Shown here: piece after piece, positions 7,169 to 27,298 of the stretch
Layout of the letters: each line of letters starts with the position of its first letter
Position numbering within the stretch: the first letter of the stretch is position 1
Translations under genes and position numbers: made by a program
Source of the DNA: Acidimicrobiia bacterium
GTDB lineage: Bacteria > Actinomycetota > Acidimicrobiia > IMCC26256 > PALSA-610
Direction of reading: 5' to 3'
NCBI GenBank assembly: GCA_038320885.1
Contig: JBBQER010000002.1
Location: forward strand, 43,086-107,085
Length of the DNA stretch: 64,000 nucleotides
Notes under the pieces: generated by a model
What the model saw: only the letters and a program-made list of their open reading frames with translations
Databases searched by the model: none
Told to the model about the DNA's origin: nothing

Positions 7169-8049
7169 TACAACTCGCCGCGTGCCATCAGCTCGACCGG
7201 ATCCTGCATGCGCACCATGCCGAGATAGCCACCTCCGCGCGGAAGACTGTCGTGCATGGCATACCCGAGAAGCTCCTGCGCCACACGCGGAAGCGTCGCC
7301 GCGATCGCCGGTGGCGTCGAGAGATAGTTGTTCTCCTCGGTACGCAGCCAGCCGAGGCAGTAGCTGAGGTGCGCGCCGCGACGCGGGATATCGGTGACGT
7401 TCGCGCCGCCGGCGTGGATCGTGCCGCCCGTGTAGACGACGGCGGATCCCGCGGACATCTCCGCGTACGCGATCTCTTCGGGCCGGGGCGCGCGTTGCTG
7501 CAGCTGCTCGGTGGGCAGGAGCTGCCGATCAGGCCAGCGATGACTGCCCGGAACGATCCGCGTCGCTCCGTTCTCGCGTGTGAAATCGACGAACGCGATC
7601 ACCGTGGCGAGCTGGAGCTCGGGTGCCGGCTTCGGCACGTCGCTCCATACCGCCTCGTCGCGATGAAGCCACTGCTCGTCGGATCCGGGACCACGTTGCA
7701 ACAGATGCCCGAGGTTGAGCTGATAGCGCGCGCACGACGGCGCGAGGATCCGATCGCACAGTGCGAGAAGCAACGGATGGCACATGACGTCGACCGCGAA
7801 GGTCCGTGAGATGCCCGGCATCCCCGCGACCTGCTTCGTGAACCGGCCGTGAAACGCTTGCATGACCGGGTTGAACAGCGCCTCGTTCGGGTCGGCCGCG
7901 GCGACGGCATCCTCGACCTCCGCGTTCACGTGGTCGACGACATCGAGTGAGAGCAACCCCTCGATGATCGCGGCGCCGTCGCGCTCGATCGCGGCGTGGA
8001 TCGCATCGGGATCGCTGCCGCCGGTGAAGTGTTGGAGTGTGCCGTCCAT
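7168..8049 (-). CDS. phytanoyl-CoA dioxygenase (PhyH) family Fe(II)/2-oxoglutarate oxygenase
   Basis: ...QWLHRDEAVW..., NGATRIVPGSHRW, GGTIHAGGAN. The stop overlaps the LuxR start (TAATG at 7166-7170). Confidence 0.75.
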   Translation of the reverse strand: MDGTLQHFTGGSDPDAIHAAIERDGAAIIEGLLSLDVVDHVNAEVEDAVAAADPNEALFNPVMQAFHGRFTKQVAGMPGISRTFAVDVMCHPLLLALCDRILAPSCARYQLNLGHLLQRGPGSDEQWLHRDEAVWSDVPKPAPELQLATVIAFVDFTRENGATRIVPGSHRWPDRQLLPTEQLQQRAPRPEEIAYAEMSAGSAVVYTGGTIHAGGANVTDIPRRGAHLSYCLGWLRTEENNYLSTPPAIAATLPRVAQELLGYAMHDSLPRGGGYLGMVRMQDPVELMARGEL

Positions 8050-24739: not shown

Positions 24740-26048
24740 GTGCAGCATCGGGGCGTGCCGAGTGAATACGTGCGCAATCAGCCGGACTTCTTCGCGGTCG
24801 GACCGGCGAGCGTAACCGCGGCGATCGACATGGGCTCGGGGATCTGGTGCTCGCCGGGGATGTCTTCGTCGTATCTGATCACCACCGACGACGGACGCAT
24901 CGTCGTCAACACCGGCATGTGGTTCGAGGCGCGCACGCACAAGGGCAACTACGACGCGATCACCACCGCGCCGACGCGCTACATCTTCCTGACGCAGAGC
25001 CACACCGATCACATCGGCGGCGTCGACACGTTCCGCGAAGAAGAAACGCAGCTCGTCGCCCAGGCCGACGACGTGCGCATCCACGGGCTGCGCATCCGGC
25101 GCTCGCTTCCCTTCTTCGCCGACGTGATGGGCCAAACCGGCTACGCGCGCGGCGACGATGCAACCATCCCGCCACTCGCCAAACCCGCGCACGCCGACAT
25201 CACCTTCGATGCCCGGTGCGAGCTCACGTGCGGCGGACGGCGCATCGAGCTCGTCAGCGTCCCGGGGGGCGAAACGATCGACTCGCTCGTGGTATGGCTG
25301 CCGGACGACGGTGTCGCGCTGGTCGGGAACATGTTCTCGGCACTCTTCGGCCACTTCCCCAACCTCGTAACCGTGCGCGGCGACCGCCTCCGCAACGCGC
25401 TTGCGTTCGTCGACTCGGTGCAACGCGTGATCGACCTGGAACCCGAGCTGCTGCTCCTCGGCCATCACGGACCGGTACTCGGTGCGCCGACCATCCGGGC
25501 GGAGTGCGAACGGATCCGCGACGCCGTGCAGTACGTGCACGATGCCACGGTCGTCGCGATGAACGACGGCCGCGATGTGTGGACCGCGATGCGGGAGATC
25601 CGTCTTCCGGAAAACCTCGAGCTCGGCGAGGCCTACGGCCGCGTCGACTGGAGTGTGCGCGCGATCTGGGAGACCTACGCGGGCTGGATCCACCAGCACT
25701 CTACGCTCGAGCTCTACGGCGCGTCGCCCGGGTAGTGGGTCAGTTCAAACTGACCCACTACCGTCGCCCGAGCAGGGCGCGACCGAGATCGTTGCGCTGG
25801 CCGGAGGAACCGACGCCGTTGCGCGCCGCGCGGCCGATCTGCTCACCACGGATCCACTGACTGCAGTTCGCCTGTGCGAGCTTGCGCTCTCGGTCGACAA
25901 CGCGCATCGGGACTCGCTCGACGCCTACCGACGCGCGCACGAGCAGCTGCTGGTCGAGCACGGCCGCGCCAACTTCTGGCTCACGAAGTGGCTCGAAGGC
26001 GAAGTACGCGGCGCGACGAACCGCCTCGAACGGCTCGGACCGAAATGA
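24740..26048 (+). pseudogene. MBL-fold alkylsulfatase-like hydrolase, disrupted by a 40-bp insertion
   Basis: The MBL motif LTQSHTDHIGG is in frame 2 up to TAG 25733-25735. The alkylsulfatase dimerisation-domain-like sequence (EQGATEIVALAGGTDAVARRAADLL...NFWLTKWLEGEVR) continues in frame 0 to 26048. Deleting 25731-25770 joins the two in frame. Confidence 0.8.
25723..25770. mobile_element. MITE-like or footprint insertion: 32-bp perfect palindrome flanked by an 8-bp direct duplication
   Basis: GTCGCCCG | GGTAGTGGGTCAGTT CA AACTGACCCACTACC | GTCGCCCG, with 15-bp arms and a 2-nt spacer. Palindrome plus one duplicate is 40 bp, and removing it restores the host ORF. Confidence 0.7.
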
Positions 26049-27298
26049 GCGAGGCGATTCGCATCGGAGACCTACGCGATCCGCAGCTCAACGCGGATCA
26101 GCGCATGGCACTCGACTACGTGGCGACGCTCGACATTCCTCTCGACGCCGACCTGATGATGGCCGCAGCGCGCCGCCGCGCCGATTGCGAAGACTTCGGT
26201 GCGCCCGACTTCCGGGGCCGACTCGACGCGACCATCGCCGCGGTCGACGCCGATACGAACCTCGGCCCGCTCGGGCGGATGATCATCCAGGGGCGCACGA
26301 TCCGCCTTCTCACCGCGCGCCTGTTGGTCGAGGACCTCGTACGGCGCCGGCCCGAGATCCTCGACATCGCGCTCCTCGCCCCCATCATCGTGATCGGGCT
26401 TCCCCGATCGGGCACGACGCATCTCGTCAATCTCATCGCGGCCGACCGCCGCCTCCGCTCCCTTCCCTTCTGGGAGAGCCTCGAGCCGTGCCCGATGCCC
26501 GGCGACGGGACCGCACGCAACGGCGTCGATCCCCGCTTCTCGCGTTGTCAGGGCGACTACGAGATGCAGCTGCAGATGGTGCCGTTGCTGCCCGCGATGC
26601 ACCACCAGCACCCGATGGCAATCGAAGAGGAGATCGAGCTCCTCGACATCGACTTCTCCGCCTACACACTCGAGTTCTACGCACGCGTTCCCAACTGGCG
26701 CGACTTCTACTTCACGCTCGACCAGCATGCGCACTACGCGTACCTGAAGAAGGTGCTCCAGGTGCTGACGTTCCTGCGGGGCCCGAACCAGTGGGTGCTG
26801 AAGTCGCCGCAACACCTCGAACAAATCCCCGCGCTCCTCGCGACGTTCCCGGACGCCACGTTCGCGATCACGCATCGAGATCCGGTCTCGGTAATCCAGT
26901 CGGCGATCACGATGCTCGCGTACGGTGACCGCGTGCGCCGGGCGTCGATCGAACCGGAGTCGCTCGCAAAATACTGGATCGATCGCATCGACCGGTTGCT
27001 CCGTGCGTGCGTGCGCGACCGTGATCTCCTGCCCCCCGATCGCAGCGTCGACGTGCTGTTCCACGAGTTCATGGCCGACGATGTGGCGATGGTCGAACGG
27101 ATCTACGAACGCAACGGCCGCGAGATGACGGACGACGCCCGCGCCGATCTCGACGCGTTCATGGCCGAGAACCCCCGCGGCAAGCACGGTCGGATCGCGT
27201 ACGACCTCCGCGCCGACTTCGGCGTCGACCCGGACGAGGTGCGCGCCCGGTTCGGCTACTACTTCGAGCGGTTCCCCGTGGTCTTAGAGCCGGCGTGA
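26045..27298 (+). CDS. sulfotransferase family protein
   Basis: Internal ATG 26045 overlaps the upstream stop (ATGA). GLPRSGTTHLVNL is a PAPS 5'-phosphosulfate-binding loop, and the rest resembles bacterial Sulfotransfer_3-type proteins. Confidence 0.75.
   Translation: MSEAIRIGDLRDPQLNADQRMALDYVATLDIPLDADLMMAAARRRADCEDFGAPDFRGRLDATIAAVDADTNLGPLGRMIIQGRTIRLLTARLLVEDLVRRRPEILDIALLAPIIVIGLPRSGTTHLVNLIAADRRLRSLPFWESLEPCPMPGDGTARNGVDPRFSRCQGDYEMQLQMVPLLPAMHHQHPMAIEEEIELLDIDFSAYTLEFYARVPNWRDFYFTLDQHAHYAYLKKVLQVLTFLRGPNQWVLKSPQHLEQIPALLATFPDATFAITHRDPVSVIQSAITMLAYGDRVRRASIEPESLAKYWIDRIDRLLRACVRDRDLLPPDRSVDVLFHEFMADDVAMVERIYERNGREMTDDARADLDAFMAENPRGKHGRIAYDLRADFGVDPDEVRARFGYYFERFPVVLEPA

Follow-up and report, generated by a model that had tools for sequence, protein, structure and literature searches.

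The window, i.e. the whole 64-kb stretch of DNA that was analysed, contains on its forward strand a gene for an MBL-fold, alkylsulfatase-like protein that is present in two pieces. The 5' fragment (24740-25735, +) ends at a TAG codon (25733-25735) inside a short palindrome, as the first-pass annotation had read it. The 3' fragment (25771-26048, +) encodes the alkyl-sulfatase dimerisation domain, is out of frame with the 5' part and runs to the native stop TGA at 26046-26048. The ATG of the adjoining sulfotransferase gene (Sulfotransfer_3; 26045-27298, +) overlaps this native stop, and the ATGA overlap at 26045-26048 was confirmed. The 321-aa protein P0081 is a shortened gene call of the disrupted MBL locus itself; the closest named relatives are Acidimicrobiia MAGs.

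Read directly, the sequence at the break consists of the 8-mer GTCGCCCG (25723-25730, +), the 32-bp unit GGTAGTGGGTCAGTT-CA-AACTGACCCACTACC (25731-25762, without orientation) and a second copy of GTCGCCCG (25763-25770, +). The unit had been described as a perfect palindrome. This holds for the arms, which are complementary at 15/15 positions, but not for the 2-nt CA centre, which is not self-complementary (30/32 positions in total). It is the sole perfect hairpin in the 64-kb window with a stem of at least 15 nt and a loop of at most 6 nt, and no further copies of the arm were found in the window at up to 2 mismatches.

Removal of 25731-25770 (40 bp) gives a single ORF of 422 aa with both a Lactamase_B and an Alkyl_sulf_dimr domain. 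The repaired protein is as seamless as had been predicted: its junction, LELYGASP/EQGA, does not differ from the consensus of 17 intact orthologs (76-89% identity), and 0/17 of these have an insertion at the junction position. The empty site that was to be expected among the orthologs of the MBL gene is present in a syntenic locus (L001, ~83% nucleotide identity), which has the order MBL, sulfotransferase, GFO/IDH/MocA and SDR in common with the window. There the sequence reads ...CTCTACGGCG CGGCGCCCG AGCA..., with the target GTCGCCCG occurring once instead of twice, and the window is longer by exactly 40 bases. That the 40 bp are an insertion plus an 8-bp target duplication is established by the empty site in L001 together with the seamless protein obtained on repair. 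The core of the first-pass interpretation, a transposon-type insertion that consists of two abutting terminal inverted repeats (TIRs) and is flanked by an 8-bp duplication, thus stands.

The MBL gene of the window also differs from its orthologs at a second place. Between 25059 and 25060 it lacks 21 bp in frame, corresponding to 7 aa (QANIxxC) that are present in all 16 full-length orthologs. In L001 the segment is flanked by CAGGC direct repeats, which indicates an independent, slippage-type in-frame deletion in a gene that was disrupted already. Such a deletion is consistent with a decaying pseudogene.

To which family the arms belong became clear from elements outside the window. The 15-mer arm was scanned against viral contigs and was found at at least 120 loci. 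At many of these it occurs in inverted pairs ("+ ... -") that delimit elements between 153 bp and 4.8 kb in length, and most of the long bounded elements are flanked by perfect 8-bp duplications. All bounded elements have a GGTAGTG... tip at both ends. The terminal inverted repeat of this parent clade is GGTAGTGGGTCAGTTTGAA. In a logo of 30 ends the positions 1-17 are invariant, which for positions 1-15 is by design, as these were set by the search pattern; positions 16-17 are about 95% conserved in functional ends and positions 18-19 (AA) 70-80%. Beyond these the sequence is random, so that only positions 1-19 are conserved.

The larger of these elements encode a single-ORF protein of ~280 aa. 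When tested on elements outside the window, this protein scored 30.2 bits against the Pfam family DDE_Tnp_IS1 (cutoff 24.1), and its best NCBIfam match was transpos_IS1 (2.5e-19), below the equivalog cutoff (70 vs 100 bits). Homologs of the IS1-type transposase were found at 31 arm-bearing viral loci among the matches listed, and homologs with 55-60% identity in finished plasmids of cultured bacteria are annotated as "IS1 family transposase". A complete example is the 3,370-bp element of Mesorhizobium loti (CP050295.1, 470343-473712), which has the same TIR, an 8-bp duplication (CGCTGGTG) and three passenger genes. The GGnnnTG tip together with the 8-9-bp duplication fits the ISfinder definition of IS1. 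Together these elements, bounded by the very same 15-mer, show that the arms are the terminal inverted repeats of a single-ORF IS1-family clade. An IS with matching ends, for which the first-pass annotation had proposed to look, does exist; the IS256 or ISL3 parentage that it had suggested is contradicted by the IS1-type transposase within the TIR-bounded elements, and IS256, ISL3 and IS6 were rejected as parents on this ground. The remark that the window lacks a transposase proved correct, since a tblastn search with the IS1-clade transposase returned no homolog in the 64 kb.

The clade belongs to the single-ORF, passenger-carrying subgroup, ISMhu11-like in ISfinder terms, and not to classical IS1, because the InsA/InsAB' frameshift is absent. 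The passenger genes differ between elements. In the M. loti element (L242, 299-3668) they encode a histone-H1-like protein, a hypothetical protein and a 367-aa HTH protein; the element at L018 (1893-4838) has ORFs of 381 aa and 160 aa and the one at L024 (1543-3965) an ORF of 423 aa, all three lacking a Pfam match. In an Acidiphilium locus (L243) a RES-Xre toxin-antitoxin pair adjoins the transposase gene. Searching the literature for the TIR string, in either orientation, returned nothing relevant.

Tiny elements in which two such ends abut are widespread. A scan for the arm, followed by 0-30 nt and the reverse-complement arm, identified 5 loci in viral contigs and at least 119 loci in bacterial and archaeal contigs that represent one genome per species; copy numbers per genome are lower bounds. 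Among the matches listed Acidobacteriota are the most frequent hosts. The others include Actinomycetota (four of them Acidimicrobiia), Chloroflexota, Pseudomonadota, Planctomycetota, Verrucomicrobiota, Nitrospirota and Gemmatimonadota, and cultured Mesorhizobium and Mycolicibacterium are also represented. Among the 124 listed elements of 30-60 bp, 69 are flanked by a perfect 8-bp duplication and another 12 by one that matches at 7/8 positions, and each of these duplicated elements (69 perfect and 12 with 7/8, among the matches listed) occupies a different site. The elements are strongly depleted from coding sequence: with the duplication present and the site repaired in silico, only 14/54 (26%) lie in an open frame of at least 200 codons, versus 71% of positions chosen at random within these loci. 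Gene-disrupting scars such as that of the window are therefore a minority, as is usual for surviving IS insertions.

Among the matches listed, the lengths of the tiny elements show a sharp peak, with 26 elements of 32 bp and 30 of 33 bp. When each element was decomposed into a left-TIR prefix and a right-TIR suffix, 48 of the 123 non-redundant ones listed (39%) consisted of a full 19-nt TIR that is joined to the other TIR at a 2-nt AA/TT overlap. Two product lengths, 32 and 33 bp, result because the opposite arm contains a run of AAA, with which the AA of TIR positions 18-19 can be aligned in either of two registers. The rest overlap by 0-1 nt or contain a few additional nucleotides, and one is a perfect 19+19 palindrome. 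The copy in the window is of the 32-bp form, to which the right end contributes 19 nt and the left end 15, with an overlap of 2: the right-end TIR is complete at 25744-25762 (TTCAAACTGACCCACTACC), the left-end TIR tip covers 25731-25745, and the TT/AA microhomology lies at 25744-25745. One end thus retains all 19 conserved TIR positions, and the other is without positions 16-17. The window junction is shown to be the commonest microhomology form in the clade, and scars of this kind are shown to arise repeatedly and independently across many phyla.

A site that occurs in both a tiny and a full state was not observed in an all-against-all comparison of the flanks of 240 loci, which recovered just duplicate contigs and the Angelobacter MITE family described below. 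Neither this comparison nor a scan of metagenomes with the left junction revealed a full-length or larger element at the window site in relatives. The junction scan yielded an unrelated hairpin alone, in metagenome Ga0326597 (L244, 2349-2390; L245, 3210-3251), namely a diverged 33-bp hairpin with arms GGTAGTGGGTCAGTT / GGTAGGGGGTCGCTT that has the 8-mer GTCGCCCG directly before it in a context unrelated to the window. The identity of this flank is due to chance, and the hairpin is an older, decaying scar. A BLAST search of plasmids with an idealised 38-bp palindrome gave 14 records with TIRs and no tiny element. In the small sample of viral contigs a search for remnants with shorter arms added one imperfect copy, and tandem junctions of the type IRR-8 nt-IRL numbered zero.

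In MAGs of Candidatus Angelobacter a 16+5+16 hairpin forms the left end of a larger MITE of ~165-175 bp, copies of which were found at L135 (2246-2420), L136 (2892-3070), L158 (6930-7138, reverse strand), L200 (2315-2530) and L187 (from 3489). A core of ~75 nt is conserved in this MITE, which also has a third TIR at its right end and an 8-bp duplication of its own, e.g. TCCATTTC in L158. It is present in at least 3 copies in one MAG; the stems are conserved and the 5-nt loop is different in every copy.

The first-pass annotation had offered two possibilities for the window copy, a minimal element or an excision footprint. The pair of alternatives was the right one, and the data favour the footprint, in the form of an internal deletion. 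We consider it likely that the window copy is the scar of a microhomology-mediated internal deletion that was left in situ, a "nearly precise excision". The MBL/alkylsulfatase-like gene would first have received a single-ORF IS1-family element (TIR GGTAGTGGGTCAGTTTGAA), whose insertion duplicated the 8-bp target GTCGCCCG. Nearly the whole interior would later have been lost in place, with the inner edge of one TIR becoming joined to the other TIR at the 2-nt AA/TT. The residue would be a 32-bp hairpin-forming scar, still with the duplication at both sides, and the outcome a frameshift, a stop within the scar and a sulfotransferase gene that is uncoupled in translation. The deletion may have proceeded by replication slippage across the TIR stem, by strand switching during copy-out or by abortive gap repair, routes that would be indistinguishable from the sequence. 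We infer that the deletion took place in situ and that the scar is no longer mobile. The MBL/alkylsulfatase-like gene is then a recent pseudogene that was created by an IS that has since nearly vanished; the pseudogenising event in the window itself is an ordinary one.

Slippage at the top of the TIR stem, between the only direct repeats that are usable there, would be expected to give the dominant forms. A local derivation is also visible in Mycolicibacterium sphagni ENV482 (L192, 226-1657), where a 36-bp tiny element and a 1,372-bp decayed IS stand in tandem, with a copy of the 8-mer CACTGCCT before, between and after them. The tiny element carries the private variant of the left end (...TTTGGAC) of the adjoining IS copy. 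This order would arise if a first, forward slip crossed the TIR stem and a second, backward slip then took place on the 8-bp repeat, and the tandem points to a local, replication-type derivation.

The alternative from the first-pass pair, that the smallest of MITEs was inserted as 32 bp by an IS1-family transposase acting in trans, seems unlikely to us. It would account for the two TIR tips with their perfect 8-bp duplication, for the 19 conserved positions kept at one end and the 15 at the other, and for the dominance of the 32/33-bp forms in many genomes among the matches listed, and genuine MITEs of 150-600 bp do occur in the IS1 clade, e.g. the one with at least 3 copies in an Angelobacter MAG. 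A second copy is absent from the 64 kb, however, and the end without positions 16-17 lacks what is ~95% conserved in functional ends, while the junction has the signature of a microhomology deletion. Moreover, two independent tiny elements in the same genome differ in structure in 4/4 genomes among the matches listed (the chance that two independent ones share their form being 0.096), which argues against a self-copying MITE, as that predicts identity. In terms of DNA mechanics, concerted integration would require both ends of a 32-bp duplex to reach target phosphates 8 bp apart, and such a short duplex should be too stiff for this. The 32-bp unit is probably not a mobile MITE. The same steric obstacle to integrating 32 bp weighs on the very unlikely scenario in which the unit was made in transit, as an abortive copy-out or strand-switch product of an IS elsewhere that integrated de novo, with no full-length copy ever at the site. 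The circular copy-out intermediates that the IS1 family uses, and the primer slippage or strand switching at microhomologies that has been proposed for related families, could give rise to such a product and would explain why the tiny elements within one genome are structurally different. No such intermediate has been described, however, and the M. sphagni tandem, in which tiny element and IS share one 8-mer, is explained more simply by a local replication slip.

A further consideration concerns the sharpness of the product preference, for which a 2-nt microhomology is a weak determinant. The preference for 32/33 bp could reflect a reaction defined by the transposase, or selection for a minimal substrate that is still functional. 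It is rather improbable in our judgement that the 32-33-bp pairs are a defined footprint of transposase-dependent excision, or else the smallest trans-mobilisable transposon substrates yet seen in bacteria; either would account for the dominance of one or two exact products in more than ten phyla. The two readings that leave transposition history aside carry far less weight. A selected RNA or DNA structure (terminator, regulatory stem-loop or REP-like), as opposed to a neutral remnant, would be in line with the very stable stem-loop and with the intergenic position of most tiny elements. It is nevertheless extremely unlikely, as the IS termini wholly account for the sequence, the unit breaks a conserved coding sequence in the window, the terminator and Rfam searches given below were negative and the intergenic bias is what survivorship usually produces among IS insertions. 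An assembly or sequencing artefact, e.g. a chimeric or adapter-derived palindrome, might be suspected in an apparently metagenome-type contig in which a frameshift makes a gene look broken. Its probability is next to negligible: a real IS family carries precisely these arms as its TIR, the target duplication has exactly the length that is characteristic of the IS1 clade, and equivalents are found in cultured isolates and in finished chromosomes (Mesorhizobium, Mycolicibacterium). We know of no sequencing-adapter or linker palindrome that matches, a point that the identification of the IS family renders moot.

At the RNA level the scar is predicted by folding to form a very stable hairpin with a 14-bp stem and a 4-nt loop (z = -5.25). 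The strong stem that had been proposed earlier is thus retained, but a canonical intrinsic terminator is ruled out, since the 3' tail of the hairpin (GUCGCCCGAGC) contains no U-tract and a terminator-like match was likewise not found. A known structured RNA family was also ruled out, there being no Rfam match at E <= 1 in the region 25500-26000. The premature stop lies ~310 nt upstream of the sulfotransferase gene and therefore removes the translational coupling. The early stop could also permit Rho-dependent polarity on this gene. Judged from the sequence, any polarity on the sulfotransferase would act via the lost coupling or via Rho and not through an intrinsic terminator. In L001 the MBL and sulfotransferase genes are 10 nt apart (7317-7328) and have no ATGA overlap, so translational coupling is not kept among close relatives.

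The retained reading, an in-situ deletion scar, explains why a conserved MBL/alkylsulfatase-like gene is broken in a sulfotransferase operon. Annotation pipelines would miss the IS origin of the break, because no transposase remains. A string of 15-19 nt suffices to flag a cross-phylum IS1 clade together with its 32-33-bp scars, of which there are at least 119 tiny loci. The scars are a record of former IS occupancy and excision, and they could serve to date or count the gain and loss of IS elements in uncultured soil bacteria. They also represent a natural data set on the removal of copy-out IS elements by slippage, strand switching or gap repair, so far studied mostly in E. coli models. If a defined excision footprint were to be true instead, this would be a bacterial IS that leaves a reproducible, sequence-defined footprint at its donor site. 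The kinds of entities involved, i.e. the IS1 family, end-only remnants derived from IS elements and nearly precise excision, are already known. A literature search found no published description of the TIR of this IS1 clade or of the 32-33-bp scars with an AA joint, and the recurrent 32-33-bp scar form appears to be undescribed.

The parents of the window element resemble the IS1 family in their IS1-profile DDE transposase, GGnnnTG tip, ~19-bp TIRs and 8-bp duplications, and some carry passengers. The window element itself differs in that transposase and interior are both absent, and, unlike an autonomous IS, its 32 bp encode nothing between the repeats. The parent clade in turn differs from classical IS1 in having one ORF in place of the programmed -1 frameshift of InsA/InsAB'. 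IS1 is known to form circles and to excise at a basal rate, which is raised by IEE. Bacterial MITEs, such as MITEAba12 and the IS6-family MITEs of 227 and 336 bp (PMC6382973, PMC7986276), likewise carry TIRs that belong to a known IS family, are flanked by a target duplication and encode nothing. At 32 bp, however, the window element is smaller by about an order of magnitude and has no internal sequence. Amplification is not evident here, and tiny pairs in one genome never have the same form among the matches listed. In Aedes, internal deletion of Tc1/mariner elements at microhomologies of 6-8 bp generates MITEs of hundreds of bp, which then amplify (PMC3814204). The similarity lies in the microhomologous internal deletion of an autonomous element to end-only derivatives; the Aedes system differs in being eukaryotic, and the IS1 clade has a shorter microhomology (2 nt) and shorter products (32-33 bp), for which no amplification was seen.

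Finally, the closest parallels are found in excision scars. For Tn10, the classical analogue, nearly precise excision is reported to leave a palindromic remnant of ~50 bp flanked by the 9-bp duplication, reportedly the work of Foster et al. in 1981. The loss of ISApl1 from Tn6330 by primer slippage or strand switching at microhomologies leads to scars with partial IRL and IRR (bioRxiv 10.1101/2023.06.07.543989). As in the scar in the window, the interior is gone in both systems, the termini and the target duplication are retained, the joining took place at short direct repeats and the gene remains inactive. The parent in the window differs in being a simple IS with TIRs of ~19 bp instead of a composite element with kb-long inverted IS copies. 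The scars of this IS1 clade further stand apart in that the microhomology is just 2 nt long and that the same 32/33-bp product recurs across many phyla.
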